From: an uncultured Bacteroidia bacterium
GTDB taxonomy: Bacteria; Bacteroidota; Bacteroidia; J057; JADKCL01
Reading direction: 5' to 3'
NCBI GenBank assembly: GCA_964352215.1
Contig: CAYGRE010000002.1
Span: 22,353 to 86,352 of the forward strand
DNA length: 64,000 bases
Part shown: positions 22,117-39,098 of the stretch, in pieces
How the letters are laid out: each line of letters opens with the position of its first letter
How positions within the stretch are numbered: the stretch's first letter is position 1
Made by a program: the position numbers and the translations under genes
The notes under the pieces: model-generated
Told to the model about the DNA's origin: nothing
The model's input: the letters and a program-made list of their open reading frames with translations, nothing else
Databases searched by the model: none

Positions 22117-23241
22117 ATGAAAAATTTCAAAGCAGGAGCCTATATCAACCAAGGAAGCTACAAGAGCTTCCAACCTGAGAAGATCAATCGTCAATGGCGT
22201 ATCGATGATGTAGAACTCATCACCTTGCTTGGAGTTGCAGAAAGGGCCTTGGGGAGACTGGACATGTATTCAGAGTACATTCCCAATATCGATCTCTGCA
22301 TCCGCATGCACGTTGCCAAAGAGGCCACCCAGTCCAGTAAAATAGAGGGTACCAAGACCAATATCGAAGAAGCTTTCCTGACCAAGGAGGACATCAATCG
22401 GGAAAACAGGGATGATTGGGAAGAGGTACAAAACTACATCGAAGCACTGAACTCGGCGATCAACAGCCTGGAAAAACTTCCCTTTTCATCCAGATTGATC
22501 AGGCAAACCCACCAGATACTGCTCCAGGGAGTCAGAGGAACCCAAAAGCTACCGGGGGAGTTTCGAAAAAGCCAAAACTGGATCGGTGGTGCAAGCATCA
22601 ATGATGCGCGATTTGTACCTCCCACCCACAATTCCATCCATGAACTCATGGGGGATCTGGAGAAGTTTGCCCATGACACTGATAACTTCTTTCCCAAATT
22701 GCTCAAGATCGCATTGATCCATTATCAATTTGAGACGATTCACCCCTTCCTGGATGGCAATGGTCGGGTTGGGCGGTTGATGATTACGTTGTTTCTCGTG
22801 GAAAATAATATCCTGAAAAAGCCGGTATTGTACCTCTCCGATTTCTTTGAGCGGAACCGGAGCTTGTACTATGACAATCTGACCCTGGTAAGAGAAAAGA
22901 ACGACCTGATTCAGTGGTGTAAATTCTTCCTGGTGGGCATCATTGAAACCGCAGAGAAAAGTTCCGCCACTTTTGATGGAATCCTGAAGCTGCAAAAAGA
23001 GGTTGAAGGGAAGATCCAGGCACTCGGAAGCCGCTCCGTCAATGCCCAATTGGTACTCGATTATCTGTTTCAAAATCCGGCGGTGGATGCTGCCAAGGTA
23101 AAAGAGTTGACCGGGCTCTCTTCTCCCTCAGTTTACAAACTGATCGGGGATCTGGAAGAAGCCAGAATCCTTGCCGAAGTGACAGGGGCAAAGAGGGGAA
23201 AGCTCTACTTCTTTGACGACTATATCAATCTGTTCCGATAA
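22117..23241 (+). CDS. Fic-family protein (AMPylation/Fido domain) with a C-terminal winged-helix domain.
   Basis: The canonical Fic motif HPFLDGNGRVGRLM is present, embedded in a typical roughly 370-aa Fic architecture. Confidence 0.9.
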   Translation: MKNFKAGAYINQGSYKSFQPEKINRQWRIDDVELITLLGVAERALGRLDMYSEYIPNIDLCIRMHVAKEATQSSKIEGTKTNIEEAFLTKEDINRENRDDWEEVQNYIEALNSAINSLEKLPFSSRLIRQTHQILLQGVRGTQKLPGEFRKSQNWIGGASINDARFVPPTHNSIHELMGDLEKFAHDTDNFFPKLLKIALIHYQFETIHPFLDGNGRVGRLMITLFLVENNILKKPVLYLSDFFERNRSLYYDNLTLVREKNDLIQWCKFFLVGIIETAEKSSATFDGILKLQKEVEGKIQALGSRSVNAQLVLDYLFQNPAVDAAKVKELTGLSSPSVYKLIGDLEEARILAEVTGAKRGKLYFFDDYINLFR

Positions 23242-23929: not shown

Positions 23930-24025
23930 CCTGGTGCTTGATCAACTTGAAAGTCAATTGCCGGGCGTGTCCCACCGGGTCTCCCAAGCCTAGTGCTTGA
24001 TCAACTTGAAAGTCAATTGCCGGGC
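23930..24025. repeat. 33-37 bp direct repeat with 59-bp period that duplicates the last 11 codons of the M43 protease gene.
   Basis: gtgcttgatcaacttgaaagtcaattgccgggc occurs at 23934-23966 and again at 23993-24025. The second copy encodes the C-terminal ARQLTFKLIKH. Confidence 0.9.
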
Positions 24026-26488
24026 TGGAGAAACAATCCTCAAGAAGTACATGCCGGCGGGGACCTTGCCCATGTCAAAAGCCCTCACCCCCGCTACCTC
24101 TGAGCTTGTCTCCTGAAATCCGAACACTTCTTTTCCAGTGATATCCACCAGCATCAGGCTTGAGGTCTCCCAATCAATGGAACCACTGATGTAAGTCATG
24201 TCCACGAAGGGATTGGGGAATACCCTGACCGGCTCCTCCTGGACACTGACCCTGACCTGGTTGGACAAATGCAATCCTCCGTTGATGTCCCGGGCAAGGA
24301 CCCGGTAAGTCTGCCAGCCACTCCCCGGATTCGTATCCGAAAAAGCAAGGGCAGGATTTCGGTTTCCGGTAACCTGGACTTCACCTAAAGCCTGATACTC
24401 CTGACCAACTAATTTTTGTATTTCAAACCGCTCAGTGGGTACATCGGCTGCATAGGACCAACTCAATTCGATTGCCCCTTCGCCGGCAACTCCTTCCAAC
24501 TGGAAGTCCTGGACTCCCAGAGGACTGGTGGCATTGAGGTTGATATTGTCCACGTAGAGGACATTTCCCCAACCCGGAATATTTCTGAATGCCAACATCA
24601 CGCTGGGAGCTCCATTGAGTCCGGCCGCGGTAAGGCTGACGGTTTCGGTTCGCCATTGGGCCGCACTGGGGATAAAAAGTGAGGTATTGTCTGGGGCTGT
24701 CGCCAGCGTGGTGCCGGTCTTGGAGAAAACCTGGGTCCAGGTGGCGCCACAATCGGTGGAGTAGTAGACTTCCAGCCCATCGAAATTGCCCGCGTTGTAC
24801 CGGGCGTAAGCGACATCAAAGGAAAGCAGGATACTGGTCTGACCCGTAAAATCGAGGATATTGGTCCGCAATTCATCTACGGTTCCGATCTCGTTCCGGT
24901 TGAAGTTGTCAAACAGCATAGAGGCTGAGCTGGCTCCGAAACCACCTACGGCAGTGTTGCGCTCCCAGGTATAATCCGCGTCGGGATTGTAAAGGCTGAA
25001 ATTCGAGGGTGGAAAAGTTCCACCCTCGAATCCTTCGAACAAGGGGTAGGTGTTGAAGGCAGCGTTGTAATCAAATTCGATGCAGGTGCCATCGTTTTCA
25101 GCGTACCCATCTACCGCCCCATTGGGGAGTGAGGTATAGGCGAAAAGCAGGTGGGTTCCCAGAGGGGTAGCCACTGGATTGAGGGTAACGGTTTGGGTGG
25201 CACCAGGTGCCAGGTTTCCTACCCAGGCGAAGGTCTGTACCAGCGTACTGTTGAGCTCCAGTTGAATATTGCAACTGGTCAGGTTGGCAGTACCAGTATT
25301 GGAAAGGACCACTTCCGGGGTAAAGGGAGAGGCACAGATATCGTCTACCGGGTAGTTGATGGCTGTTATTCCAGCGTCATTGGGCGAAAATGGAATGAGC
25401 GCGGGTGAGGTCAGCAGGCTGGCCCGTCCGGCAAGGATGGAGGCATGCATCCGGTCACCTTGACCGACGGTAAAGGCTTCCCAGCACCCTGCCGTATAGT
25501 CCATATAATTCTCAAGGTCATCCGTCTGGTCTCCGAGGCCACCGTTGGCGACCGGACGGAATGGATTGTTGATACTCAGATCTGCTTCATCTGCATTGCA
25601 GGCATTCGAAGGAGCGACACAGGTTCCACCACTGTAACCGGGACTCGTCTTAGGTGGGGTGTCACAAACACCGTCTCCGTCAACGGTACAGTCATTGTTG
25701 ACACAACCTCCCTGGAAGGTATGCCGCACACCAAAATAATGGCCACCTTCATGGGCGACCAGGCCGGACCAATAGGAACCAGCGCGAAAGACCGCTCCAT
25801 CGTAATTCTGACCATGGGCAGAGGGGTAATAAGCAAAGCCTCCCACCCCGTTGCCAGCGGGGCAACTCCCCGCATCACAGATCGTCTCAACGACAAAGAG
25901 GTTGAAGTAATCAGTGGAAGGCCAGCCAAAGGCGATCTGGGTATTGTCGGTCCCGTAAACGTTTTCGGCATTGATATCATCGGAGTGGCGAATGATCCCA
26001 TTGGTAGGATTGCCGGATGGATCCCGAAAAGCCAGTACCAATTCAATATTGACATCCACGCCGCTGTAAGGATTGTTGAAAGTCAATCCCGAATTGTGGC
26101 GTAATCGATCGTTCAACAGGTTAATCGAGTTGATGACATCCGCATCGGTCAGGTTGGCCCCGGTTCCCAAAGCACTGGTGGTATAATGGCAGAGATGGAC
26201 CACGACCGGAACCCGGAAGGTTGTACTGGCTCCCACACAGGCAGTTGAACTCCTGGCTTGGTTAAGTTCCACCCCTTGAAGCATCATTTCCCGGACCTTC
26301 TTATCGAGCGCCTTCTGGGTCGCCTCAAAGGCGGGATCATTCATCCGGGCTTCGTGAAGTTCTTCGGTTCCACAGCCTCCTGGACGCGTGATCTCAGGTG
26401 ATTGTCCATAAACGGCTGGGTGGACGAGCATCAAGGGAACAAGGATCAAAAAATAAAGCAGGAGGTCGAGTTTCCAGGACTGTTTCAT
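23990..26488 (-). CDS. Secreted zinc metalloprotease of the M43 (cytophagalysin/pappalysin-like) family with a T9SS type-A C-terminal sorting domain.
   Basis: The start was set at MKQSWKLDLLLYFLILVPLMLVHPAVYGQ (signal peptide). The zinc site is VAHEGGHYFGVRHTF (HExxHxxGxxH). The C-terminus VFPNPFVDMTYISG ... AGMYFLRIVS ... KLIKH is a Por secretion tail. Confidence 0.8.
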   Translation of the reverse strand: MKQSWKLDLLLYFLILVPLMLVHPAVYGQSPEITRPGGCGTEELHEARMNDPAFEATQKALDKKVREMMLQGVELNQARSSTACVGASTTFRVPVVVHLCHYTTSALGTGANLTDADVINSINLLNDRLRHNSGLTFNNPYSGVDVNIELVLAFRDPSGNPTNGIIRHSDDINAENVYGTDNTQIAFGWPSTDYFNLFVVETICDAGSCPAGNGVGGFAYYPSAHGQNYDGAVFRAGSYWSGLVAHEGGHYFGVRHTFQGGCVNNDCTVDGDGVCDTPPKTSPGYSGGTCVAPSNACNADEADLSINNPFRPVANGGLGDQTDDLENYMDYTAGCWEAFTVGQGDRMHASILAGRASLLTSPALIPFSPNDAGITAINYPVDDICASPFTPEVVLSNTGTANLTSCNIQLELNSTLVQTFAWVGNLAPGATQTVTLNPVATPLGTHLLFAYTSLPNGAVDGYAENDGTCIEFDYNAAFNTYPLFEGFEGGTFPPSNFSLYNPDADYTWERNTAVGGFGASSASMLFDNFNRNEIGTVDELRTNILDFTGQTSILLSFDVAYARYNAGNFDGLEVYYSTDCGATWTQVFSKTGTTLATAPDNTSLFIPSAAQWRTETVSLTAAGLNGAPSVMLAFRNIPGWGNVLYVDNINLNATSPLGVQDFQLEGVAGEGAIELSWSYAADVPTERFEIQKLVGQEYQALGEVQVTGNRNPALAFSDTNPGSGWQTYRVLARDINGGLHLSNQVRVSVQEEPVRVFPNPFVDMTYISGSIDWETSSLMLVDITGKEVFGFQETSSEVAGVRAFDMGKVPAGMYFLRIVSPARQLTFKLIKH

Positions 26489-26564
26489 AAATCGGGTTAA
26501 TGAAAAGGTTGGTCGTTGATTGATGGCACAATATATGAAATTCAATTCTGAAACCTCAATTGGA

Positions 26565-27194
26565 TCAGCTTTGTCGTCCAGAAAAGGCGACAACGCGCTT
26601 ATGGATAACTGCCAACCAAAAGCCAACCGTAAAACTCATGGCCACCGAGCCCCATTCTGCCCAGGACCATTTGGCATCGCTTTGCAAGTAAATGATGTCC
26701 AGGGCAGCAGAAAGGATACAGAAAAATATGAGGATCTTGTCGATCCGGGGGTGCCGGAAGGCCACGTAGACTCCGAGCAGCATCAGGACCACATCCAGAC
26801 CGAAGTAAATTCCTCCCAAAATTTTATGGGTTAAATGGTGGTCTCCGTTAAAGACAGCAATCCCGAACAGACAGGCAGAAGCGGTGTACCCCAGCGTGGT
26901 CATCAGGGAAACTCCACGGTCCAGATTGCGGTCACCCGTTTTCCAGATATAAAGAGAGCGGTAAAAACCCAGCATCAGGATGGCTGATCCAGCAGTACCA
27001 AGGAAAGAATAGATATAGCCATTGGGGTTCCAGGTGGGCCGGCCCAGGCGGCTGATATTATTGGAAACAATGCTGTATTCGTGGTCGTACTGAAGCCAGG
27101 CCAGGTACAGAAAGGTGTACAGTACAACTGCAGCCAGAAAGATCACATAGGGAGAGGTGAAAAACTTCTTCACACCATAACTTCTAAATGCCAT
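26565..27194 (-). CDS. Hypothetical integral membrane protein.
   Basis: It has about 5-6 hydrophobic helices. There is no recognisable catalytic motif. Confidence 0.5.
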   Translation of the reverse strand: MAFRSYGVKKFFTSPYVIFLAAVVLYTFLYLAWLQYDHEYSIVSNNISRLGRPTWNPNGYIYSFLGTAGSAILMLGFYRSLYIWKTGDRNLDRGVSLMTTLGYTASACLFGIAVFNGDHHLTHKILGGIYFGLDVVLMLLGVYVAFRHPRIDKILIFFCILSAALDIIYLQSDAKWSWAEWGSVAMSFTVGFWLAVIHKRVVAFSGRQS

Positions 27195-27859: not shown

Positions 27860-29497
27860 TCAATCTAACTGCAATATACCTGCATAAGAAATCCCTGTCA
27901 ACCTGTGAATATCCCAATTCCAGGTGGTTAAGTCATCGGCATTGAATTTATTGACATCATTATAGCCACAAGCCCTTGCAATGACCCTAATGAGGTCATT
28001 GGAGGCGGTAAGAAAATTGTACAGTTGGCGTGAACTTTTGAGAATTTCCAGGCGGGCACGAAGGTGATCTTTCATAGTAGCAATGCCTACGGGGCAATTA
28101 TTGGTATTACAGGCCCGCATCCCGAGGCAGCCAATGGCTTGCAGTGCTGAGTTAGAAACCGCAATTGCATCTGCCCCCAACATCAGGGCTTTGGCAAAAT
28201 CAGCCGGGGTCCGGAGGCCTCCGGTCACCACCAGGCTCACACCTTTGGCCCCGACCTTGTCGAGGTGACGTCTGGCCCGCGCCAAGGCCGGAATGGTCGG
28301 AACATTGATATTGTCCCGCAATATGGTCGGTGCAGCCCCGGTTCCCCCTCCCCGACCATCAAGAATGATATAATCCGCACCTGCTTCCAAAGCAAAGTCG
28401 ATGTCTGCTTCCACCCGGCTGGCAGCCAGTTTAAAGCCCACCGGAATCCCCCCGGTCAAGGTCCTTACCTCCTGGGCAAAGGCGGCAAAATCTGCAGGCG
28501 TACGGAATTCCTCAAAGGTAGCCGGACTGATCGCAGCCTCTCCTTCGGGAAGATTGCGGACCTTCGCGATTTCGCCAACAACCTTTTCCGCAGGCAAATG
28601 CCCTCCGGTTCCCGTCTTTGCTCCCTGCCCGCCTTTAAAATGAAAAGCCTGGGCCTTCTTCACTTTGTCCCAACTAAAGCCAAACTTTGCCGAAGCCAAC
28701 TCATAAAAATAGCGGCTATTGTTCTCCTGTTCTTCCGGCAACATCCCCCCTTCCCCTGAACAAATCCCTGTTCCAGCCATTTCAGCTCCCTTGGACAGCG
28801 AAATCTTTGCTTCCCGGCTCAGGGCGCCAAAAGACATATCAGAAACGAAGATCGGCATCTCCAGTTCCAAGGGCCGCGCTGCATTCGGACCAATCACCAC
28901 CTTGGTATGGACCTCCTCATGATCCAACAATGGACGCCGCGCCAATTGCGCCGGCAGGAATTGAATATTTTCCCACTTGGGAAGGGTATTCCGGTCGACC
29001 CCCATCGCAGCGGAAGGTCCGTGATGACCGGTCTTGCTGAGACCATTTCGGGCCAGATCCTGAATGTACCGGGTATGGGGCTCGGTATCTTCAGGATGGG
29101 TGTCTGCATAGTCGCCAAGGTACTGGTCCCGGTCAAAGGGCTGCGGATGGGCAACATGAAAAGCACGGATTTCAGCAGCATCTACATACAGACCTCCCTC
29201 ATGCACTCCCCCCTTGAACTTGTGCAAGGCCTCATCATTGTTGTATTCAGAGACACCCGTATCGTAGCGATAATCCCAGTGGTGAACCCCGCACATCAGA
29301 TTGTGCCCATCTATATAACCATCGGACAACAAGGCCCCCCGGTGGTGACAACGACCGTACAATACCGAGACATCCTCTCCAAAACGGACGATGACGAGGT
29401 CGACATTTTCAACCAGGGCATGAGCGGGAGCGAGGTCCTCCAGCGTTGTCCAATCAGCAATCTTCTGAGGTTCAGCCAGTTTCGAATACGGGGTCAT
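27860..29497 (-). CDS. Rieske [2Fe-2S] domain fused to an FMN-binding glutamate-synthase-like (GltB domain-2 family) oxidoreductase.
   Basis: The N-terminus has the Rieske ligands GRCHHRGALLS ... LMCGVHHWDY (CxH ... CxxH). The C-terminal 440 aa match the glutamate synthase FMN/Fe-S TIM-barrel (ALSREAKISL ... SGEGG ... GGTGAAP ... VVTGGLRTPADFAKALMLGADA). Confidence 0.8.
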   Translation of the reverse strand: MTPYSKLAEPQKIADWTTLEDLAPAHALVENVDLVIVRFGEDVSVLYGRCHHRGALLSDGYIDGHNLMCGVHHWDYRYDTGVSEYNNDEALHKFKGGVHEGGLYVDAAEIRAFHVAHPQPFDRDQYLGDYADTHPEDTEPHTRYIQDLARNGLSKTGHHGPSAAMGVDRNTLPKWENIQFLPAQLARRPLLDHEEVHTKVVIGPNAARPLELEMPIFVSDMSFGALSREAKISLSKGAEMAGTGICSGEGGMLPEEQENNSRYFYELASAKFGFSWDKVKKAQAFHFKGGQGAKTGTGGHLPAEKVVGEIAKVRNLPEGEAAISPATFEEFRTPADFAAFAQEVRTLTGGIPVGFKLAASRVEADIDFALEAGADYIILDGRGGGTGAAPTILRDNINVPTIPALARARRHLDKVGAKGVSLVVTGGLRTPADFAKALMLGADAIAVSNSALQAIGCLGMRACNTNNCPVGIATMKDHLRARLEILKSSRQLYNFLTASNDLIRVIARACGYNDVNKFNADDLTTWNWDIHRLTGISYAGILQLD

Positions 29498-29857
29498 AAA
29501 GGAGAGAAGTATTTTAATGAAAATGATAGTAATACTATAACCTTGCGGAGTATTCCTACGTAAGTATAATCAAACACAAAGAACACCAATTTAGTGAATA
29601 TGATATAAACCGCTACCCAAAACACAAGCCCAACTCGCTAACCGTCCAGAGTCTGACCTCTGGACGGACAACAAACCCAGCAGCGAACATTTAACCAACC
29701 AACTTACTTACCCCACGAAACAATGATCCGGACCGGGTATTCAATCCCGGCTCCGGTTCTGAGTTACTCTTACCTGAATTCTTACCATCGTCATTGTGAA
29801 ATGATTTTTTTCCCACAGGGAATGAATCTATTTTTGTGCCAATGCGGCATTAGACCC

Positions 29858-30643
29858 ATGCAAGAACTTTTCGACTTATCCATCGCCCCTGAAAATCTGT
29901 TTCCCACCATTCTGCTGACTTTTGTCGCAGTCTACTGGGTGATTTTCATTGTCGGATTGCTGGACTTCAGCTTTCTGGACTTCGATCTGGACAAAGACCT
30001 GGGTGTCGAAGTAGATTTTGATGGAAGCGTCGGAGCCCATGTGGACGGTGACCTCGGCGCAGGTGTCGGAGCCTATGTCGACGGCGACCTCGGCGCAAGC
30101 GTCGGAGGCGACGTGGATGGAGATGCCGACCTCGGCAAAGATGTCTCCTCCCACGGGAAAAACATCTCAGGCCCCGGCAAAGATGTCGGTATTGGCACCA
30201 AAATCCTTTGGTTCCTCAACCTGGGTGATGTCCCCTTCATGGCCTTTATGACCTTCTTCGCCCTCTTCTTCTGGGCTGGCTGTATATTGGGGCACCATTA
30301 TCTGAGCAAGGACAGCCTCCTGCTTTCGATCCTGGTCACCCTTGGCAGCATCGTCATAGCCGCATTGCTTACCAAAGCCATCACCCAACCTTTCCGCAAG
30401 TTTTTCCGGTCCCTGAACCAGGCCGAGAAACCACTGGTCCTCACCGGCCAGATTTGCACCATGGAAACAGGAGCCGCCGGGGATCGTCTGGGCCAGGCCT
30501 ATGTCAGCCTGGAAGACAAACATCTGCTGATCAATGTAAAATCCGATAGTGGAGACCGCATTGACAAAGGGGTACAGTGTCTTATCCTCGCGAAAAGCGA
30601 CGACGGTGACTATTACTTTATACAACCATTTGACTTAGAATAA
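29858..30643 (+). CDS. YqiJ/NfeD-like membrane protein: 3 transmembrane helices, an acidic Asp/Gly-rich repeat loop and a C-terminal NfeD-type OB-fold. It is the first gene of the flotillin cluster.
   Basis: The start was set at the ATG at 29858 (MQELFDL...), which is preceded by TATTTTTG at 29829-36. The TM helices are ILLTFVAVYWVIFIVGLL, FMAFMTFFALFFWAGCILG and LLLSILVTLGSIVIAALL. The C-terminal beta-rich segment is LVLTGQICTMETGAAGDRLGQAYVSLEDKHLLINVKSD ... CLILAKSDDGDYYFIQP. It sits immediately upstream of a flotillin gene, like E. coli yqiJ-yqiK and B. subtilis nfeD-floT. Confidence 0.6.
   Translation: MQELFDLSIAPENLFPTILLTFVAVYWVIFIVGLLDFSFLDFDLDKDLGVEVDFDGSVGAHVDGDLGAGVGAYVDGDLGASVGGDVDGDADLGKDVSSHGKNISGPGKDVGIGTKILWFLNLGDVPFMAFMTFFALFFWAGCILGHHYLSKDSLLLSILVTLGSIVIAALLTKAITQPFRKFFRSLNQAEKPLVLTGQICTMETGAAGDRLGQAYVSLEDKHLLINVKSDSGDRIDKGVQCLILAKSDDGDYYFIQPFDLE
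30029..30136. repeat. 36-bp tandem repeat (3 copies) inside the yqiJ-like CDS, encoding (V)G(A)xVDGDLGA.
   Basis: The copies are gtcggagcccatgtggacggtgacctcggcgcaggt, gtcggagcctatgtcgacggcgacctcggcgcaagc and a degenerate third. The unit is in frame (36 = 12 codons). Confidence 0.8.
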
Positions 30644-30805
30644 ATGCGCACACTGATGTTCGGAATGGGAACCGGAGAAATCATGTTGATCATATTGGTC
30701 CTCATTGTCATGCTGGTCGTCATCCCCATGATTCTCGTCGTCATCCTACGGCTGACCGGCAAGCACAAGGACCCAGATGACCGCTATCCCGGACATCGAT
30801 CTTAA
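30644..30805 (+). CDS. Unannotated 53-aa single-pass membrane micro-protein whose start overlaps the upstream stop (TAAATG).
   Basis: It falls below the 60-aa ORF-track cutoff. The translation is MRTLMFGMGTGEIMLIILVLIVMLVVIPMILVVILRLTGKHKDPDDRYPGHRS, a strongly hydrophobic 25-aa core with a charged C-terminus. The ATG directly abuts the TAA of the upstream gene. It lies between the nfeD-like and flotillin genes on the same strand. Confidence 0.45.
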   Translation: MRTLMFGMGTGEIMLIILVLIVMLVVIPMILVVILRLTGKHKDPDDRYPGHRS

Positions 30806-30910
30806 TAACAAACCCGTGCAGATTTCCTGATGAAATCGTAAATTATCGACCGAAATCATCTAGTACGGAATTTACCAGAATATTTAACCATTGCACTTTA
30901 ATCATCCGAA

Positions 30911-33091
30911 ATGCTCAACTCACAACTATTCATTGGAGCGGTGTTTGACAATGTGATCACCTTCGTGATCATCGGCATCGCAGTCGCTATTGTCCTTTCT
31001 CTGGCCCTTGTACTCTCCTGGTACAAGAAAGTCCCTCAAGGAAAGGCCCTGGTCCGAACCGGAATCGGTGGGATCAAGATATCCTTCAATGGCATGATCG
31101 TCATCCCGGTTGCCCACAAGATGGAGATGATGGACATCTCTCTTAAGAAAGTAGAGATTGGCCGTACTGGCAAGGACGGTCTGATCTGTAAAGACAATAT
31201 GCGGGCCGATATCAAGGTGGCCTTTTTCGTCCGGGTCAATCCGGAAAAAGAAGCAGTTGGAAGGGTGGCTCAGACCATCGGGGTATCCAGAGGCTCGGCG
31301 GAAGGAACGCTGACCCAACTGTTTGAAGCAAAATTCTCCGAAGCACTCAAGTCTGTCGGTAAACGCTTCAACTTTGTGGAGCTCTATGACAACCGGGAAT
31401 CCTTTCGGGAGGAGATCATCAATATGATTGGCACCAACCTCAACGGCTATATTCTGGACGATGCCGCCATTGACTACCTGGAGCAAACCCCGATTGAATT
31501 CCTTCAGGATGACAATATCCTTGATTCCGAAGGTATCAAGAAGATCACCGACCTCACCGCGATCCAGCACATTGCTGCCAACAAGATCCGCAATGAAGAG
31601 AAGAAGGTCATCACCCAGCAGGATGTTGAAGCCCAGGAAGCCATCCTGGAGCTGAACCGCCAACTCGTGGAAAAGGAGCAAATCCAGCAGCGGGAAATTG
31701 CTTCCATCACGGCCCGGGAAGAAGCCGAAACCAAGAAGATCCAGGCTGAAGAATTACTGCGCTCTGAGCAAGCCCGCATCCAGACCGAAGAAGAGGTCGC
31801 TATCGCGGAGCAAAACAAGCAGCGTCAGGTCATTGTGGCTCAAAAGTCCAAAGAGAAGACCGAAGCAGTGGAAACCGAGCGCGTCACCAAAGAGCGTGAA
31901 CTGGAGATCAATGAACGGGAGCGGGTGGTCACCCTGGCCCAGATCGAGAAAGAGAAGTCGGTCGAGGAAGAAAAGAAGAATATCCAGGAAGTGATCCGGG
32001 AACGGGTCATTGTGGAAAAGGCCACCGTGGTGGAAGAAGAGAAGATTAAAGACACCCGTGAATTTGCCACCGCTGACCGTTCCAAAAAAGTTGCACTGAC
32101 CAAGGCGGAAGAAACTTCCGGCCAGGAGAAGATCATGGCTGTGATCAAAGCAGAAGCAGATAAGGAAGCGGCTCAGATTGAAGCCCTGCGGAAGATCATC
32201 GAAGCGGAGGCCGCCCTGAAAGCATCTGAGCTGGATGCGGAAGCCATCAAGAGACGTGCTGAGGCCCGGGCCGCCGAAGAAGCTGCCGTCGGTGTCTCTG
32301 AAGCACAGGTCATCGAAGCCAAAGCTATTGCCAGCCAGCGCAAAGGTGAAGCCGATGCCAAAATCATTGAACTTCGGGCCAGTGCCGAAGCCAAAGAGAT
32401 CGAACTGAAAGCGGCGGCCAATGAGCAGGCCGGACTCAAAGAAGCCAACGTGCTTGAACAAACTGCCCTGGCCGCAGCCAAAGGCAAGACCGCCAATGCG
32501 GAGGCGACCGAGCGCGAAGGCCTGGCCGAAGCCCTTACCATCGAGAGCAAGCTGATTGCGGAAGCAAAAGGTATCGAGAAGAAAGCCGATGCGATGAAGA
32601 AGCTCGACGGAGTGGGCAAAGACCACGAAGAGTTCCGCCTCAGGTTGCAGAAAGACAAAGAAGTCGAGTTGGCTCAGATCGGGATCATGGCCGAGATCGC
32701 AGGTGCCCAGGCAACTGTGCTCAGCGAGGCCCTCAAGTCCGCCAATATCGACATCGTAGGTGGCGAAGCCGTATTCTTTGACAAACTGATGAATGCAGTG
32801 ACCCAGGCCAAGACCATTGATGGGCTGGTCAACAAGAGCAGCGTCCTCAGCGATCTGAAGAACAACCTACTCGACGGGGAGGATGGCAATGTGATCGACA
32901 AGGTCAAAGGACTGGTCCAGCAAATTGGGCTGAAGTCCGATGACATCAAGAACCTGAGTATTGCAGCCCTGCTGTTGAAAATGAACGATGCAACCGACGA
33001 CAACAGTGTCAAAGGGGTGATCAACCGCCTCATGAACGCTGCGTGGCAGACAGGCATCGCCGACAAATCAGCAGGTTTGCTCGGACTGTAA
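30911..33091 (+). CDS. Flotillin-family protein (SPFH/band 7 domain, YqiK/FloT-like) with a long Ala/Glu/Lys-rich coiled-coil C-terminus.
   Basis: An N-terminal TM helix (VITFVIIGIAVAIVLSLALVLSWY) is followed by the SPFH domain (KKVPQGKALVRTGIGG ... RADIKVAFFVRV), then about 400 aa of EA-repeat coiled coil (KAEADKEAAQIEALRKIIEAEA ...). Confidence 0.85.
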   Translation: MLNSQLFIGAVFDNVITFVIIGIAVAIVLSLALVLSWYKKVPQGKALVRTGIGGIKISFNGMIVIPVAHKMEMMDISLKKVEIGRTGKDGLICKDNMRADIKVAFFVRVNPEKEAVGRVAQTIGVSRGSAEGTLTQLFEAKFSEALKSVGKRFNFVELYDNRESFREEIINMIGTNLNGYILDDAAIDYLEQTPIEFLQDDNILDSEGIKKITDLTAIQHIAANKIRNEEKKVITQQDVEAQEAILELNRQLVEKEQIQQREIASITAREEAETKKIQAEELLRSEQARIQTEEEVAIAEQNKQRQVIVAQKSKEKTEAVETERVTKERELEINERERVVTLAQIEKEKSVEEEKKNIQEVIRERVIVEKATVVEEEKIKDTREFATADRSKKVALTKAEETSGQEKIMAVIKAEADKEAAQIEALRKIIEAEAALKASELDAEAIKRRAEARAAEEAAVGVSEAQVIEAKAIASQRKGEADAKIIELRASAEAKEIELKAAANEQAGLKEANVLEQTALAAAKGKTANAEATEREGLAEALTIESKLIAEAKGIEKKADAMKKLDGVGKDHEEFRLRLQKDKEVELAQIGIMAEIAGAQATVLSEALKSANIDIVGGEAVFFDKLMNAVTQAKTIDGLVNKSSVLSDLKNNLLDGEDGNVIDKVKGLVQQIGLKSDDIKNLSIAALLLKMNDATDDNSVKGVINRLMNAAWQTGIADKSAGLLGL

Positions 33092-33112
33092 GAACAGTTT
33101 CAGAATTTCACA

Positions 33113-36100
33113 GTGGAAAATACCAATAACATACAACTCGAAGGCGGGGCCTACGAGATCATCCGCAACCGCCTCCTGACCCACGGCACCGAGCTGCGCC
33201 AAAGACTTGGCCAGCTCGATGAAGCCCGCCGGGAGGTGTTCGGATCGATCTCCACCGAACTTCTGGCCACCGACCGGATATCAACTGAAAACAATTGCAT
33301 CGCCAGAGACATCGTCTCTATCGGAGGCAAGTCCATCTTCGGATACAATGTCCAGTTGGGCTTGCGGACCGAGATGCATCTCAAAGATGTCTTTGCAGTA
33401 TTTCACTACAAGGACCAACGCTACCACGAGGACAGCCTGGACTTCATCCGGCATCCACGGTTTGAAGAGGATTTTACCAACCTCTACAAATATTACCGTC
33501 ATACCGTCTTCTCGAAGTTCGCGGTCATCGGTCCACACCTCTATATGGTGTTTCAGATCGGTAAAAGCGTCACCGACATCAAAGCCTTTAAGTTCCTCAT
33601 CACCCCGGAGCAGACCCTCCAATTTGTTGACAGTCGCTCCGAGGCAGAGGTCAGGTATCCCGAACAGCACGAATTCAAATGGGTACGTGCCCACCGGGAC
33701 ATGCACCGGACAGGTCAATTCCCCCATGTATCCATCATGGACAAGGTGTTCGTGGAGACCATGGGCGGAAGCCTGACCATCAAGGTCGAGGACAATACCG
33801 ACTCCGGGCTGGGAATTTACACCGAGGACGTCGACCATAAGGAGCAGTCTCTGGACGACGCGGAAATGTTCTATGCAGATCTGGGCAATATCCTTGTTCT
33901 GAAAATCCGCCCCTTTCAGGAAAAGGATTTTCGCTACATCGCCTACAACGAAAAGATGCAGGAAGCCCGGAGGATTGATACATTGGCGCACAGCTGTGTT
34001 CTCCTCCCCGATAGCCACGGCATCATTTTCGCCAATGGCTATTACCTCCAGACCGGTGAGTACAAGATTTTCCAGACCGGCCTCACCGATCTGCATTTCG
34101 AAAAGCGGATTTCAAGCCCCAATGGTGAAGATTACCTCTATGTATTCTTCAACCAGGACACAGGCTCCTACGTCCTGCTCAGTTACAACCTGATCGCTCA
34201 GAAGGTCGAAGCCCCCATCATCTGCAATGGATTTGCCCTCTTTGAAAATGGCGAGTTGACCTATTTCCGGGCCGAAGTCGAACCGACCAAGCACCACGCC
34301 ATCCAGATCTGGCAGACCCCTTATGTGGGCCTCAATTTCCGACTTCCGGTTTCTGAGGACAACAAGCTGTATAAGATTGGCAACAAGGACATCGTCCGGG
34401 CCATGGCCGAGTGTACCGAGATCCTCACCATTCTCAACAAAGAGGACACCTACGGTGGGCTCTACATCGACCTGGTCAAGCTGAGCGGCAATGTGCTGGA
34501 CAGCTATTACTGGATCGCAGACAAAGACACCTTCCAACTCAACGAACCGCTGAAAGAAATCAGGGAGTCAGCGGAGGGGGCCATTGAAGAGTTTGAGAAA
34601 GTAACCAGGGTACGGAGACACACCCGCGACGAAATGGAACGGGTCAGCCAGGCCGCCGACCACCTCGTCCGCGAGATCAAGCGCTCCATCTTCGAGAATG
34701 TCAACCAATTCGTAAAGATGCTGGCCGACCTCCGCAAGATGCGGGGCGAAGTCATCTCCCTGAAAGAATTGCGGTATGTCGATCTGGAACTCGTGGACCG
34801 CCTGGCAACGGACCTGTCCGAAGAAACCGAACGCCTGTCCCGCAAATGCGTGGAATTCCTACTGCGCGAGGGTGCACTCGCCCCCTACCAGGACAAAGTC
34901 ACCGAAGTCCACGGCGAGATCGACAGCGTCAAAACCGCCGCCGAAGCGGCCCAGGTAGAATTGAAGATCGAGGAGGTCGCCTCTGAACTGGAACTGCTGA
35001 TCGAGATCGTCTCCAATCTCAAGATTGACGATGCCACTCAGACGGCCCGCATCATCGACAGCATCTCGAATATATTCGCCGAGCTCAACCAGGTCCGGGC
35101 CGCCTTGCGCCGCCACAAAAAAGAACTGATGAGCACCGAGGCGGTGGCCGAGTTCAGCGCCCAGCTCAAACTGGTCGGCCAGGCGGTGGTCAACTACCTC
35201 GATGTCTCCGACACCCCTCAGAAATGCGATGAGTACGTCACCAAACTCATGGTACAGGTCGAGGAACTTGAAGGAAAGTTCTCCGAGTACGATGAATTCA
35301 TTGACCAACTCACCGAGAAGCGGGAAGAGATCTACAATGCTTTCGAAGCCCGGAAATTGTCTCTGACCGAAGCGCGTAACAAGCGGGCCTCGGCCCTCTT
35401 CAAGAGCGCAGAACGCATCCTCTCCGGCATCCGCAACCGGGTGGCCCAGTTCGGGGAAGTCACTGAGATCAATGGCTATTTCGCCTCCGACCTGATGATC
35501 GACAAGGTCCGGGACATCGTTGAGAAACTGATGGAGCTGGATGACAATGTCAAGTCCGAAGACCTGCAATCCCGGCTCAAGACCATCCGCGAGGATGCGG
35601 TGCGCCAACTCAGGGACCGCAAAGACCTCTTTGTCGATGGCAAGAATATCATCCAGTTGGGCAAGCATAAGTTTTCAGTCAACGTCCAACCGCTGGACCT
35701 GACCATTGTCCCCAAGGACGACGACCAATACTTCCACCTGAGTGGCACCAATTTTTTTGAGCGCATCCGCAACGAAGACTTCGAAGCCACCCGACCGATC
35801 TGGAAGCAAGAGCTCGTTTCCGAAAGCGAGGAAGTCTACCGGGCCGAATTTCTGGCTTATGCATTCTTCAAAGAAATGGTCGGGGACAGGAAGGGCCTTG
35901 ATGCCTTTGCAAATGCCCCCGAAGCGGAGCAATTGGAGCAACTCCATACCTATATGGGGCCCCGCTACCAGGAGGGCTATGCCAAGGGAGTCCACGACCA
36001 GGATGCCTACGCAATCCTGAACGCATTGCTGACCCTCCATTCCGACATCGGACTGCAACGGTACGCCCCTTCCGTACGGGCCTGTGCCATGCTCTGGTGG

Positions 36101-37996
36101 GAAACCTTCGTTAGCAAATCCGACAAAGCCCTTCTGCAACACCGGCTCAAAGGTGCGGGTTCAGTCCTGAAAGTATTTCCGGATTCCAAAGAATTTGGCG
36201 ACCTGGAAGCAGACATTTCCGAGCTCATCCATCAATTTCAGGAAGCAACCGGCCTCTTTGCCGCGGTATCCCAGTGCCTGGCTGCCGAGTATTTATTTGC
36301 CGAATTGACGCAAAACGACCGCTTTCTCGCTTCCGGCCCGGCCCAGCAGTTGCACCGGGATTTGAACGCATTTCTGAGCCGCAAGTCCTCGGTCAAGACC
36401 TTCCAGGAATCGCTCCGGCAATTGGAAGAGGTACCCGAAGACCGCTATTCGCTGATCTGCAGCTGGCTGACCGCTTATGTAGAAATGGAAGGCAAACCGG
36501 AGGCAGTGGATTATGTCCAGGAAGCCGCAGTGATTCAGTTCCTCGGCGATCAGGACCATTTCCGCACCGTTCCCGGCTCCGTCCATACTGAACTGAAAGG
36601 CCTGCGGGGAGACCATCCTGCCCTGGGAGAAAAAGGCCATTACCGTCTCAACTACAACCACTTCATGGCCCGGCTGGGCAATTACCACCGGGAGACCGTT
36701 CCCAAATTTCACCAATACCACCAGCTCAAGCACAAACTCACCGAAGAGTTCCGGTCTGAGCTCCGCCTCAGTGAGTTCAAACCAAGGGTATTGTCCAGTT
36801 TCGTCCGCAACAAACTGATCGACGAGGTCTATTTGCCCCTGTTCGGCAACAACCTGGCCAAGCAGATCGGCACGGTCGGCGACGACAAGCGCACCGACCG
36901 GATGGGGATGTTGCTCCTCATCTCGCCGCCGGGATACGGTAAGACGACCCTGATGGAATACATCGCCAACCGTCTCGGGCTGATCTTCATGAAGATCAAT
37001 GGCCCCGCGATCGGACACTCGGTGACCGCTCTCGATCCGGAAGAAGCCCCCAATGCTGCTGCCCGCGAGGAACTGCAAAAGCTGAACCTGGCATTGGAGA
37101 TGGGAGACAATATCATGCTCTACATCGACGATATTCAGCACTGTCACCCTGAGTTCCTGCAAAAATTCATCTCACTCTGTGATGCGCAGCGCAAGATCGA
37201 AGGGGTGTACAAGGGCCGTTCCCAGACCTATGACCTGCGCGGCAAACGCGTCTGTGTGGTCATGGCGGGCAATCCTTATACCGAATCCGGCACCAAGTTT
37301 CAGGTACCGGACATGCTGGCCAACCGCGCCGATACCTACAACCTGGGGGATATCATTGGGGAAACGGATACCTACTTCAAATTGTCTCTGGTCGAGAACT
37401 GTCTCACCAGCAACAATGCCTTGCAAAAGATAGCCCAGCGCTCCCACAAGGATGTTTATACCTTCCTGAAAATCGCAGAGACTGACAAACAGGAGGGGCT
37501 GGATTTCGAAGGGAATTATACCCCGGAAGAAGTTTCAGAAATCGTGGCAGTCTTGAAAAAGTTGATGGTGGTGCGGGATGTAATCCTGACCGTCAACCAG
37601 GAATACATCCGCAGTGCTGGGATGGGTGATGAGTTCCGTACGGAACCGGCTTTCAAACTCCAGGGTTCTTACCGGGACATGAACAAGCTGGCAGAGAAGC
37701 TTATCCCCATCATGAACGACCGGGAGTTGAAAGCCATGCTGCTCACCCACTACGAAAGCGAATCTCAAACCCTCACCTCTGGTGCGGAGGCGAATTTGCT
37801 CAAGTTCAAGCAAATGGTGGGTTGGATGACCGAGGAGGAGCAAGCCCGCTGGAACGATATCAAGGCGACTTTTATGAAGAAGCAGAGCCTTCTGGGCATC
37901 GATGCCGGCGACAAATTCGGCCAGGTGATTGCCCAATTGGGGAGTCTGGTGGATGGGATTGAAGGGATGCGAAAAGCAGTGGAAGGACAGAAGTAA
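33113..37996 (+). CDS. Giant (1627 aa) protein with an N-terminal domain of unknown fold, a central roughly 600-aa coiled coil and a C-terminal AAA_5 (MoxR/dynein-related) ATPase domain. It is probably co-operonic with the flotillin gene 22 bp upstream.
   Basis: Walker A is LLLISPPGYGKTTLMEY, Walker B is IMLYIDDIQHCHPEFL, sensor-1 is VCVVMAGNPY, and the Arg finger region is VPDMLANRADTYNL. This order matches AAA_5. Residues roughly 480-1100 have a heptad-rich helical composition. No match to a characterised family could be recalled. Confidence 0.6.
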   Translation: MENTNNIQLEGGAYEIIRNRLLTHGTELRQRLGQLDEARREVFGSISTELLATDRISTENNCIARDIVSIGGKSIFGYNVQLGLRTEMHLKDVFAVFHYKDQRYHEDSLDFIRHPRFEEDFTNLYKYYRHTVFSKFAVIGPHLYMVFQIGKSVTDIKAFKFLITPEQTLQFVDSRSEAEVRYPEQHEFKWVRAHRDMHRTGQFPHVSIMDKVFVETMGGSLTIKVEDNTDSGLGIYTEDVDHKEQSLDDAEMFYADLGNILVLKIRPFQEKDFRYIAYNEKMQEARRIDTLAHSCVLLPDSHGIIFANGYYLQTGEYKIFQTGLTDLHFEKRISSPNGEDYLYVFFNQDTGSYVLLSYNLIAQKVEAPIICNGFALFENGELTYFRAEVEPTKHHAIQIWQTPYVGLNFRLPVSEDNKLYKIGNKDIVRAMAECTEILTILNKEDTYGGLYIDLVKLSGNVLDSYYWIADKDTFQLNEPLKEIRESAEGAIEEFEKVTRVRRHTRDEMERVSQAADHLVREIKRSIFENVNQFVKMLADLRKMRGEVISLKELRYVDLELVDRLATDLSEETERLSRKCVEFLLREGALAPYQDKVTEVHGEIDSVKTAAEAAQVELKIEEVASELELLIEIVSNLKIDDATQTARIIDSISNIFAELNQVRAALRRHKKELMSTEAVAEFSAQLKLVGQAVVNYLDVSDTPQKCDEYVTKLMVQVEELEGKFSEYDEFIDQLTEKREEIYNAFEARKLSLTEARNKRASALFKSAERILSGIRNRVAQFGEVTEINGYFASDLMIDKVRDIVEKLMELDDNVKSEDLQSRLKTIREDAVRQLRDRKDLFVDGKNIIQLGKHKFSVNVQPLDLTIVPKDDDQYFHLSGTNFFERIRNEDFEATRPIWKQELVSESEEVYRAEFLAYAFFKEMVGDRKGLDAFANAPEAEQLEQLHTYMGPRYQEGYAKGVHDQDAYAILNALLTLHSDIGLQRYAPSVRACAMLWWETFVSKSDKALLQHRLKGAGSVLKVFPDSKEFGDLEADISELIHQFQEATGLFAAVSQCLAAEYLFAELTQNDRFLASGPAQQLHRDLNAFLSRKSSVKTFQESLRQLEEVPEDRYSLICSWLTAYVEMEGKPEAVDYVQEAAVIQFLGDQDHFRTVPGSVHTELKGLRGDHPALGEKGHYRLNYNHFMARLGNYHRETVPKFHQYHQLKHKLTEEFRSELRLSEFKPRVLSSFVRNKLIDEVYLPLFGNNLAKQIGTVGDDKRTDRMGMLLLISPPGYGKTTLMEYIANRLGLIFMKINGPAIGHSVTALDPEEAPNAAAREELQKLNLALEMGDNIMLYIDDIQHCHPEFLQKFISLCDAQRKIEGVYKGRSQTYDLRGKRVCVVMAGNPYTESGTKFQVPDMLANRADTYNLGDIIGETDTYFKLSLVENCLTSNNALQKIAQRSHKDVYTFLKIAETDKQEGLDFEGNYTPEEVSEIVAVLKKLMVVRDVILTVNQEYIRSAGMGDEFRTEPAFKLQGSYRDMNKLAEKLIPIMNDRELKAMLLTHYESESQTLTSGAEANLLKFKQMVGWMTEEEQARWNDIKATFMKKQSLLGIDAGDKFGQVIAQLGSLVDGIEGMRKAVEGQK

Positions 37997-38074
37997 TCTG
38001 TATCTTTGCAGCAATAAGCATCTGTAGCACCGAGCATCTGCAGCACAAGAATTTCGAAGCATAAGAAGCGCACC

Positions 38075-38809
38075 ATGTCCGATTCTTCATATTTGATCAG
38101 TGACCCGGTTGTATTGCACAACGCCCTGATTGATGCCCATTCCAAGGCGGATGGGTTAAGGTACAGAGCCTTGTGCGACCAGAATTCAAACTTGATTCAC
38201 AAGCACTTCCCAGCCTGGATGGTGATTCCCTACGCCATCAAGAACGATGAAAACGCGGTGAATGTCTATTCGGCTGCGATTGTGAATGTCGCGGTCCACT
38301 TTGCCATGAAGGGCGATACGCGCCTCATGGACCTGATCAACGGTATCGGAGACGATCCTTCTGTAAAATGGGACGAGGCATTCCACCAGTTCGAGGACCT
38401 GATGAAGAAGTTTGACTTCGCCGCTGCCCGTGACTTGTTGCTCGAGGTGGCATCGGAAATGCGGGAGCTGTCCGGGCCGGCCATTGACTACCGTATACCC
38501 TACGTCCACGAACGCCTGACCTGGTTGTTTTTTCTTTCCGGGGACATGGAATCGGCCGAATTGTACGGACGGGCGGCGCTGATGGGATTCAGAAAGACGA
38601 AAAATACCGAAGGGATATTGACAATCACCCGGCGCCTCGCAGACATCTTCAAAGCAGCGGGCGAATGGGAAAAGTCCCGGCAATGGATCATCCGATTTAC
38701 CAATATCCTACTGCAAAATGGCCGTCAGGAGAATGCAGAGGCAGTTCGCAGGTTACATGGGATTGAGCCCCTGGGAGAAGTGATTCCCCTTTCTGCTTCC
38801 GAAGATTGA
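38075..38809 (+). CDS. Hypothetical protein, possibly helical-repeat or TPR-like, probably the last gene of the flotillin/ATPase cluster.
   Basis: It is on the same strand, 79 bp after the giant ATPase. It has no signal peptide and no recognisable motif. Confidence 0.4.
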   Translation: MSDSSYLISDPVVLHNALIDAHSKADGLRYRALCDQNSNLIHKHFPAWMVIPYAIKNDENAVNVYSAAIVNVAVHFAMKGDTRLMDLINGIGDDPSVKWDEAFHQFEDLMKKFDFAAARDLLLEVASEMRELSGPAIDYRIPYVHERLTWLFFLSGDMESAELYGRAALMGFRKTKNTEGILTITRRLADIFKAAGEWEKSRQWIIRFTNILLQNGRQENAEAVRRLHGIEPLGEVIPLSASED

Positions 38810-38882
38810 CACAAAGAATACATCTTGATTTGCGTGGGAAAATTTCCGATATTCGTAGGTAAGCCAATAAAATTTCTGAGCC

Positions 38883-39098
38883 ATGTTATACGCAGACAAT
38901 AAAGAGAATAAGCCCAAGAAAACCCCTGCTGGTCGCGTCAACACTCCTGAGGACGCCCAAGGGCCTTCATTTGCTCCCCCGGAACTCTTCAAAGACGACG
39001 AAGACAAAGAGGATGAAATGGAGGATCATGGTGGACTTTCCGCTACGGAAAAAGAGAAGAAGAAAGCACTCGAGAAGAAGGAAAGAAAGGGACTTTAA
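38883..39098 (+). CDS. Small, highly charged hypothetical protein (71 aa).
   Basis: This is an ORF only. Its composition is KEKKKALEKKERK and it contains the motif GPSFAPPELF seen in neighbouring leader-like ORFs. Its coding status is uncertain. Confidence 0.25.
   Translation: MLYADNKENKPKKTPAGRVNTPEDAQGPSFAPPELFKDDEDKEDEMEDHGGLSATEKEKKKALEKKERKGL

Follow-up and report, generated by a model that had tools for sequence, protein, structure and literature searches.

A conserved module of YqiJ-like protein, flotillin and giant AAA+ ATPase in an uncultured Bacteroidia bacterium, with a possible role in the remodelling of flotillin assemblies

The assembly, size control and turnover of SPFH/flotillin scaffolds are matters of continuing enquiry in both bacteria and eukaryotes. 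In the yqiJ-yqiK locus of Escherichia coli and the yuaF(nfeD2)-floT locus of Bacillus subtilis, a flotillin is encoded together with a membrane partner protein. The subject of this report is a flotillin locus located at positions 29858-38809 of a 64,000-nucleotide stretch of DNA from an uncultured Bacteroidia bacterium (contig CAYGRE010000002.1 of assembly GCA_964352215.1). We refer to this whole stretch as the window and give all positions in its coordinates. The locus encodes a homologous membrane partner and a flotillin in the same order as in E. coli and B. subtilis, but unlike those two pairs it additionally carries an AAA+ gene, whose product is a giant protein of 1627 amino acids. The flotillins linked to this giant are also longer, with a median length of about 695 amino acids as compared to 553 amino acids for the E. 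coli YqiK protein. An earlier reading of the letters alone (hereafter the original prediction) had proposed that the flotillin/YqiJ pair is extended here by a giant coiled-coil AAA+ protein, and this proposal is borne out by our analysis.

The closest described system is the CesT/Tir-PspA operon reported by Ravi et al. (2024, mSystems 9:e00847-23, PMC11237479; preprint 2020), which includes genes for a YqiJ/YuaF protein with three transmembrane segments, a Band-7/flotillin protein, and an AAA-ATPase that combines a β-propeller with a coiled coil. The gene order of its prototype from Dokdonia donghaensis (ANH61663.1), as given in Table S3 of that paper, is the order recovered here. Ravi et al. 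(PMC11237479) also noted abbreviated operons, reduced to the flotillin and the YqiJ/YuaF protein with or without the AAA+ ATPase, and they proposed ATP-dependent, chaperone-like membrane dynamics as the function of the operon. The window shares the three core proteins, their order and their strand with this system, and we independently recovered the extended form in about 25 Bacteroidota loci; it differs in that the CesT/Tir-PspA dyad and the divergent cHTH-protease regulator are missing, and in that it carries a gene for a micro-membrane protein that does not appear in the searched passages and supplementary table of the paper. Since a family-specific hidden Markov model (HMM) search found no CesT/Tir, PspA or HTH regulator gene anywhere in the 64-kb window, we assign the locus to the abbreviated class. 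The architecture is therefore already known in silico, although the original prediction could name no characterised counterpart, and the gene set, published as a prediction in 2024, does not count as a discovery. Targeted literature searches for an experimental study of the module found none and returned Ravi et al. alone.

What the present analysis adds is that the giant has its constant partner in flotillin rather than in PspA, that the Walker B motif of the giant is universally DD, that its database name 'DNA repair ATPase' is unsupported, that Pfam-based pipelines miss the flotillin through composition bias, and that a fifth gene originally counted as part of the cluster has to be dropped from it. 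We regard it as moderately probable that the locus represents an abbreviated form of a conserved operon whose giant ATPase remodels flotillin assemblies at the expense of ATP in the course of membrane maintenance or envelope stress.

Conservation of the gene set was assessed by a survey of the 10-kb flanks of the 80 best among at least 590 genome matches to the giant, all of which are at least 44% identical to it. These loci stem from Bacteroidota, Planctomycetota, Verrucomicrobiota, Bacillota (Clostridia), Desulfobacterota and Lentisphaeria; one further locus, from Acidobacteriota, was obtained by a separate look-up. The open reading frames (ORFs) in these flanks were searched with the window proteins, and the upstream ratios reported here count the loci that possess enough upstream DNA. 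A flotillin gene lies upstream of the giant on the same strand at 62 of the 64 informative loci, and a YqiJ-like gene is found upstream of the giant at 56 of 63. The surveyed homologs of the giant consequently do not reside mostly away from flotillin, and, judged by gene order, the genes for the YqiJ-like protein, the flotillin and the giant form a conserved three-gene module that is encoded on one strand in at least six phyla. In the median, the YqiJ-like gene is separated from the flotillin gene by 18 bp, and the flotillin gene from that of the giant by 123 bp. At 22 of 73 loci, other genes have been inserted into the latter junction (>400 bp, up to 2.4 kb; examples are loci L005, L019, L023, L024, L033, L037, L038 and L070), including genes of the DUF559 and PD-(D/E)XK_3 nuclease families, while order and strand are always kept. 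Five loci from the PVC group (Planctomycetes, Verrucomicrobia, Chlamydiae) carry the flotillin and the giant without a YqiJ-like gene; the ORFs found upstream at these five loci have no Pfam match except for one MFS transporter, are mutually non-homologous, and two of them look like spurious high-GC ORFs.

In about 25 of the 80 loci, all of them from Bacteroidota, the operon is extended upstream by genes for CesT_Tir_1 (E=2e-51) and PspA_IM30 (E=6e-41) proteins and by a divergently oriented gene for an HTH/S24-like regulator. No neighbour family beyond the YqiJ-like, flotillin, PspA, CesT and HTH families is conserved, and those that were scanned do not contain a VWA domain. The gene neighbourhoods thus identify flotillin, and not PspA, as the constant partner of the giant, and it is this constancy that points to flotillin as the target or the platform of the ATPase. 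At four loci (L014, L032, L034 and L083), a conserved block of four genes is present directly downstream of the giant, the first of which encodes a DUF4178 protein, together with a probable lipoprotein rich in S/R/Y/G residues. DUF4178 has been linked to CesT/Tir-PspA polyamine operons by Ravi et al. (2024, PMC11237479), and the block may represent another module related to the phage shock protein (PSP) response that is positioned beside the system.

The flotillin gene of the window (30911-33091, + strand) encodes a YqiK-type protein of 726 amino acids that is composed of a transmembrane anchor (residues 15-33), an SPFH/Band_7 domain (residues 40-180; nucleotides 31028-31450), a long E/A/K-rich coiled coil and a C-terminal region. 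With E. coli YqiK it shares 29% identity over 455 amino acids (E=1.6e-45), the HMM of the family matches YqiK with E=4.5e-74, and the Band_7 domain is recognized when the N-terminal 263 amino acids are scanned alone (E=1.2e-9; 38.9 bits versus a cut-off of 23.6), so that the original identification of this protein as a flotillin stands. The full-length protein gave no match in Pfam, NCBIfam, PADLOC or PDB sequence scans, the N-terminal fragment has no sequence relative in the PDB, and neither a Pfam family at E<=1 nor any flotillin C-terminal model was matched by the C-terminal 206 amino acids. The blank full-length scans are most likely caused by a composition-bias filter acting on the E/A/K-rich coiled coil. 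Flotillins linked to the giant in the window and at the loci L002 and L084-L089 are all without Pfam annotation, both in full-length scans and in precomputed tables, and match Band_7 once the coiled coil has been removed. Because the domain escapes detection in the full-length proteins, the flotillin link would go unnoticed in neighbourhood surveys that rely on domains.

The gene preceding the micro-membrane-protein gene and the flotillin gene (29858-30643, + strand) encodes an inner-membrane protein of 261 amino acids that resembles YqiJ and YuaF. An HMM built from 52 giant-linked homologs matches the window protein with E=5.8e-66, and the alignment begins at the methionine encoded at 29858 and not at the start of a longer ORF at 29723. 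The family profile aligns with almost the whole of E. coli YqiJ (hmmsearch E=1.3e-12; hhalign 96.9%, E=1.7e-10), while its best match in the PDB, the B. subtilis YuaF structure 2K14, is weak (E=0.12). Of 32 family members, 17 match the Pfam YqiJ_N model, and one matches the Pfam NfeD model (PF01957; E=0.03); the window protein itself matches neither. Consequently, the YqiJ half of the previously used label 'NfeD/YqiJ-like' holds, and we prefer 'YqiJ/YuaF-like', since 'NfeD-like' applies only in a broad sense to a family that the Pfam NfeD model essentially fails to match. Three transmembrane segments are predicted (residues 17-35, 122-140 and 154-172), and the protein possesses an acidic, DxD-rich loop and a C-terminal OB-like domain. 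Compared with the family HMM, the acidic loop of the window protein carries a D/G-rich insertion of about 45 amino acids, which is encoded by a 36-bp tandem repeat present in 2.3 copies (30025..30107, + strand; score 131 in Tandem Repeats Finder). DxD repeats are abundant in this loop throughout the family, and the acidic D/G-rich loop may bind cations.

The giant is encoded from a GTG start at 33113-37996 (+ strand), and it is cytoplasmic to judge from the absence of any predicted transmembrane segment. Its most diagnostic Pfam domain is DUF3686 (E=5e-181, residues 27-466), and an AlphaFold2 (AF2) model of residues 1-480 (predicted local distance difference test score, pLDDT, 87.9; predicted template modelling score, pTM, 0.85) shows a long N-terminal helix (residues 11-43) followed by a β-propeller (residues 49-401; 33257..34315, + strand) whose top Foldseek matches in the PDB are all WD40 or other β-propellers. 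A long helical region follows (residues ~470-870; 34520..35722, + strand) that contains DUF7902 (residues 588-671, nucleotides 34874-35125; E=1.6e-27 in the full-length scan and E=8.5e-30 in a fragment scan) and otherwise displays weak coiled-coil-type matches; it is probably a coiled coil. The AF2 model of residues 870-1627 (pLDDT 84.5) consists of an all-helical middle domain (residues 871-1220; 35723..36772, + strand) and an AAA+ module (residues ~1255-1570; 36875..37822, + strand), in which residues 1267-1390 match the Pfam models AAA_5 (24.7 bits; cut-off 22) and AAA (28.7 bits). In structure, this module comes closest to midasin and to the MoxR ATPases CbbQ and NorQ. In the model, a hairpin precedes sensor 1 (strands at model residues 492-497 and 500-505), located between the third core helix and the fourth core strand; a β-hairpin at this position is a feature of the MoxR/AAA_5 clade, and the GNP motif at sensor 1 of the giant resembles the corresponding motifs of MoxR and dynein. 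By modest score margins, the modelled AAA+ module would thus belong to the MoxR/AAA_5 clade. The MoxR/dynein-type AAA_5 assignment of the original prediction is hence upheld, albeit by a modest margin, while the DUF3686 propeller had been missed.

The AAA+ module contains a Walker A motif (SPPGYGKTT, residues 1271-1279), a Walker B motif of the form hhhhDD (D1339, D1340), a sensor-1 asparagine (N1387) and a candidate arginine finger (R1405). The Walker A motif, the sensor-1 asparagine and the candidate arginine finger are invariant or nearly so among 120 protein clusters. The Walker B motif ends in DD and not in the canonical DE in 119 of these 120 clusters and in all 79 genome copies (window codons 37127-37132). 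The giant has more than 5500 homologous clusters and retains 55-57% identity over 1600 amino acids across phyla; the large AAA+ subdomain is the most (81%) and the middle domain the least conserved part (39%), with the propeller (59%) and the coiled coil (57%) in between. The near-invariance of Walker A, the sensor-1 asparagine and the arginine, together with the 81% identity of the large AAA+ subdomain, suggests that the giant is likely an active enzyme. A Pfam scan of the protein did not find any DNA-binding, nuclease or protease domain.

In the mechanism that we propose, the flotillin, anchored by its N-terminal transmembrane segment, would build up an oligomeric SPFH dome or lattice on the inner membrane, facing the cytoplasm, and the C-terminal OB domain of the YqiJ-like protein would dock to it in the way in which NfeD-type partners bind SPFH proteins. 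The giant would form a ring through its MoxR/midasin-like AAA+ module and grip the flotillin, or clients bound to it, with propellers that project on long coiled-coil arms; ATP would be spent on building, dismantling or reshaping the scaffold in the course of membrane maintenance or envelope stress. At loci that also encode PspA, this protein would act in concert with the module. A role in membrane remodelling or surveillance had already been suggested for the locus, and it fits the frequent PspA/CesT extension and agrees with the published predictions.

Several known systems offer partial precedents for such a machine. SPFH rings are general: HflK/C forms cages that partner with the AAA+ protease FtsH, and human flotillin assembles into a 44-mer dome. 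By analogy only, HflK/C-FtsH shares with the module an SPFH scaffold and a ring ATPase at the inner membrane; however, FtsH is a membrane-anchored AAA protease of the classical clade that HflK/C encloses on the periplasmic side, whereas the giant is cytoplasmic, lacks a protease domain and is MoxR/midasin-like. ESCRT-III/PspA polymers with Vps4-type AAA+ proteins and the B. subtilis PspA-YdjGHI system, in which the SPFH protein YdjI recruits PspA to the membrane, resemble the module in that polymers which remodel membranes are linked to ATPases or brought in by SPFH proteins, and PspA is a frequent operon neighbour of the module as well. The giant differs from Vps4 by the absence of an MIT domain, by its pre-sensor-1 hairpin, and by tracking flotillin rather than PspA. 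The MoxR ATPases (CbbQ, NorQ, RavA) and the AAA_5 proteins midasin and dynein are the best structural matches, in keeping with an AAA_5 score above cut-off; the giant departs from MoxR in having no VWA partner among its conserved neighbours and DD in place of DE in Walker B. In thousands of genomes, including those of culturable Bacteroidota, the module nearly always joins flotillin to an AAA+ protein of very high conservation, and it thereby provides an experimental handle on the energy-dependent control of membrane microdomains and on a stress link between flotillin and the ESCRT-III-like PspA.

A further gene, situated between those for the YqiJ-like protein and the flotillin (30644-30805, + strand), encodes a single-pass micro-membrane protein of 53 amino acids with one predicted transmembrane segment (residues 16-34); public gene calls place its start at 30656 (49 amino acids) and include two homologs with 77% and 71% identity. 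In the two closest relatives with long contigs, the corresponding slot holds one ortholog at locus L085 (5391-5549) and five tandem paralogs of 50-56 amino acids at L084 (4656-5530), whose giant is 73% identical to that of the window. All five are single-pass proteins with charged C-terminal tails, and some of their genes have overlapping stop and start codons, an arrangement that looks like a tandem amplification of the micro-membrane-protein gene within the flotillin operon. No such ORF is present between the YqiJ-like gene and the flotillin gene at 58 loci from other genera. As it is found in close relatives and absent from these loci, the comparison marks the 53-amino-acid peptide as the product of a real gene that is a clade-restricted accessory and not a core part of the module; in its lineage it may serve as a client or a modulator. 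The same slot is occupied at two other loci (L087:3167-3730 and L007:6957-7508) by the gene for a short paralog that consists of a transmembrane segment and the SPFH domain only (187 amino acids in L087) and lies between the YqiJ-like gene and the full flotillin gene. In Aquimarina, tail-anchored small proteins of 79-84 amino acids are encoded between the flotillin and the giant (L024:8534-9042, in two tandem copies, and L063:9613-9852); these are a different kind of small membrane protein that has been recruited into the same operon.

Several observations weigh against a flotillin-remodelling function of the giant. The survey covers just the 80 best of at least 590 matches (>=44% identity), and two loci within it (L022 and L025) possess enough upstream DNA yet no flotillin nearby. 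Tight co-translation is not universal, given the insertions at 22 of 73 junctions. We infer co-transcription in this genome from the gene spacing and promoter-like motifs alone, and the physical contact between the giant and flotillin is a postulated one. The DD form of Walker B may be associated with slow or switch-like ATP hydrolysis, as opposed to that of a processive remodeller. MoxR-type ATPases usually pair with VWA partners in cofactor insertion or complex maturation, and no VWA gene is found among the conserved neighbours. A sharper version of the proposal, which we put forward only tentatively, holds that the giant is a dedicated ATP-driven machine for the assembly and disassembly of flotillin domes, a Vps4-like recycling factor for SPFH proteins whose propellers grip flotillin from coiled-coil arms of ~400 residues, and that the clade-specific, tandemly amplifying micro-membrane peptides are modulators or cargo of the microdomain. 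If true, the giant would be the first enzyme known to control the dynamics of an SPFH scaffold.

The main rival to flotillin remodelling, unlikely in our estimation but deserving serious consideration, is that the giant acts as a MoxR-style chaperone that serves, from the flotillin platform, in the maturation, insertion or extraction of other membrane proteins, with the small transmembrane peptides among its clients. Its kinship with CbbQ, NorQ and midasin, the HflK/C-FtsH precedent for an alliance of SPFH and AAA+ proteins, and the recurrence of small single-pass membrane protein genes in the operon (in the window, L084 and L085, and in Aquimarina L024 and L063) all accord with such a role, and Ravi et al. 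(PMC11237479) favour a chaperone-like assembly function. However, neither a VWA partner nor a protease domain is present, and the transmembrane peptides are restricted to particular lineages. Moreover, none of the 25 largest neighbour families beyond the core three is common to all sampled phyla, so that there is no conserved client gene. A very unlikely alternative, raised in the original prediction on the grounds that defence systems often pair a large NTPase with membrane partners, is that the scaffold at the membrane and the large NTPase detect infection as part of an anti-phage or abortive-infection system. Small genes of the DUF559 and PD-(D/E)XK_3 nuclease families are indeed sometimes inserted beside the giant, and the giant weakly matches the PADLOC models LmuB (E=5e-6) and mad8 (E=1e-3), but the former match falls into the coiled coil (residues 468-871) and the latter into the P-loop region, and neither is specific; a weak TrlF match likewise lies within the coiled-coil stretch (residues ~470-870). 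PADLOC-DB v2 contains no match for the YqiJ-like protein, the 53-amino-acid peptide or the flotillin, and that for the 244-amino-acid product of the fifth gene reaches 14.6 bits only. No relative of the giant was detected in 2.9 M viral contigs, the flanking genes are ordinary metabolic and envelope genes that vary by genus, no effector domain is present, and the recurrent partner is PspA. The identity of 55-57% over 1600 amino acids, rising to 81% in the AAA+ core, is also unlike that of fast-evolving defence genes. It is the lack of a specific PADLOC match and of a viral copy, the housekeeping neighbours and this unusual conservation that make a role in defence unlikely.

Least credible of all the readings considered is the one implied by the databases, in which the giant is named 'DNA repair ATPase' (NCBI) and DUF3686 is described as an 'ATPase involved in DNA repair' (Pfam). 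Weak RuvB_N matches in Pfam and NCBIfam might seem to speak for it, but the RuvB equivalog model scores 22.9 bits against a cut-off of 282 and covers just 45 residues around the P-loop. No DNA-binding or nuclease domain was found in the giant, its conserved neighbours encode membrane proteins and not repair enzymes, and our literature search found no paper that mentions DUF3686, nothing that links flotillin to a 'DNA repair ATPase', and nothing relevant on SPFH proteins in anti-phage defence. From the standpoint of domain content and gene neighbourhood, this database name is unsupported.

Within the window, the five + strand ORFs at 29858-38809 are present with the coordinates at which they were first listed. 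The TAA stop codon of the YqiJ-like gene (30641-30643) abuts the ATG of the micro-ORF and does not overlap it as had been stated for the TAAATG junction; the subsequent gaps measure 105 bp from the micro-ORF to the flotillin gene, 21 bp (not 22) from there to the giant, and 78 bp (not 79) from the giant to the gene for the 244-amino-acid protein. The -7 promoter consensus of Bacteroidota, known from Bacteroides promoters, is TAnnTTTG. On the + strand between 29500 and 38900 it occurs only twice: as a weak candidate for the operon promoter (TATTTTTG, 29829..29836, + strand) 21 nucleotides upstream of the ATG of the YqiJ-like gene, and at 38001-38008 (+ strand), just past the stop codon of the giant and ahead of the 244-amino-acid gene. 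The 34 matches over the entire window, versus 25 +/- 5 expected by chance, are not above chance level, and the placement of these two is weak evidence, in keeping with one transcript that spans four genes and a separate transcript for the 244-amino-acid gene. A scan for sigma-70 promoters and terminators yielded counts at chance level, with a sigma-70 consensus that is ill-suited to Bacteroidota. Megablast comparison of the locus with E. coli genomes and PLSDB plasmids gave no match. Long antisense ORFs, for instance those at 31754-32626 and 36293-37162 (- strand), lie entirely within the conserved + strand genes for flotillin and the giant and are for this reason treated as shadow ORFs.

The gene at 38075-38809 (+ strand) encodes an orphan protein of 244 amino acids, and it was regarded at first as the fifth member of the cluster. 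Its presence on the same strand, 78 bp behind the giant, and the retention of this position in one close relative (L085) would accord with a functional component of a five-gene operon, a reading that we consider highly improbable. The family of this protein comprises 12 clusters among 5.8 billion proteins, as compared to more than 5500 for the giant, and the gene is absent downstream of the giant at L084, L087, L088 and L089 and at all 80 genome loci; furthermore, the promoter-like motif at 38001-38008 separates it from the giant. At L090 and L091, homologs occur together with a partner of 74-75 amino acids and without a giant or flotillin within 9 kb. A 71-amino-acid ORF likewise lies directly downstream of the 244-amino-acid gene in the window (38883-39098). 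The 244-amino-acid gene and the acidic, lysine-rich ORF of 71-75 amino acids are always paired (window 38075-39098, L085:13015-14043, L090:8304-9345 and L091:3595-4686); this two-gene unit was found only in the few related contigs examined, and neither of its products has a Pfam family. Since an orphan family of 12 clusters that elsewhere lies away from the system is involved, we exclude the 244-amino-acid gene and consider it an unrelated neighbour with a putative promoter of its own. Of the five-gene unit first envisioned, the three genes conserved across phyla therefore remain, with the micro-membrane-protein gene as a clade-restricted addition and the 244-amino-acid gene unlinked elsewhere. 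The spacer between the giant and the 244-amino-acid gene also holds two 14-nucleotide direct repeats, AGCATCTG(T/C)AGCAC (38017-38030 and 38033-38046), just downstream of the TAnnTTTG motif at 38001-38008; they might serve as an operator of the downstream gene.

The surroundings of the locus consist of genes of other kinds. Divergently upstream of the YqiJ-like gene lies a gene (27860-29497, - strand) for a 545-amino-acid fusion protein that joins an N-terminal Rieske [2Fe-2S] domain to a glutamate-synthase FMN-type domain, and its adjacency to the module is not kept at other loci. Further upstream, a Fic/DOC family protein with a Fic_N domain is encoded at 22117-23241 (+ strand), and an M43 metallopeptidase of 878 amino acids, equipped with CARDB and type IX secretion system (T9SS) sorting domains, the latter marking the window as chromosomal DNA of Bacteroidota, is encoded at 23990-26626 (- strand).

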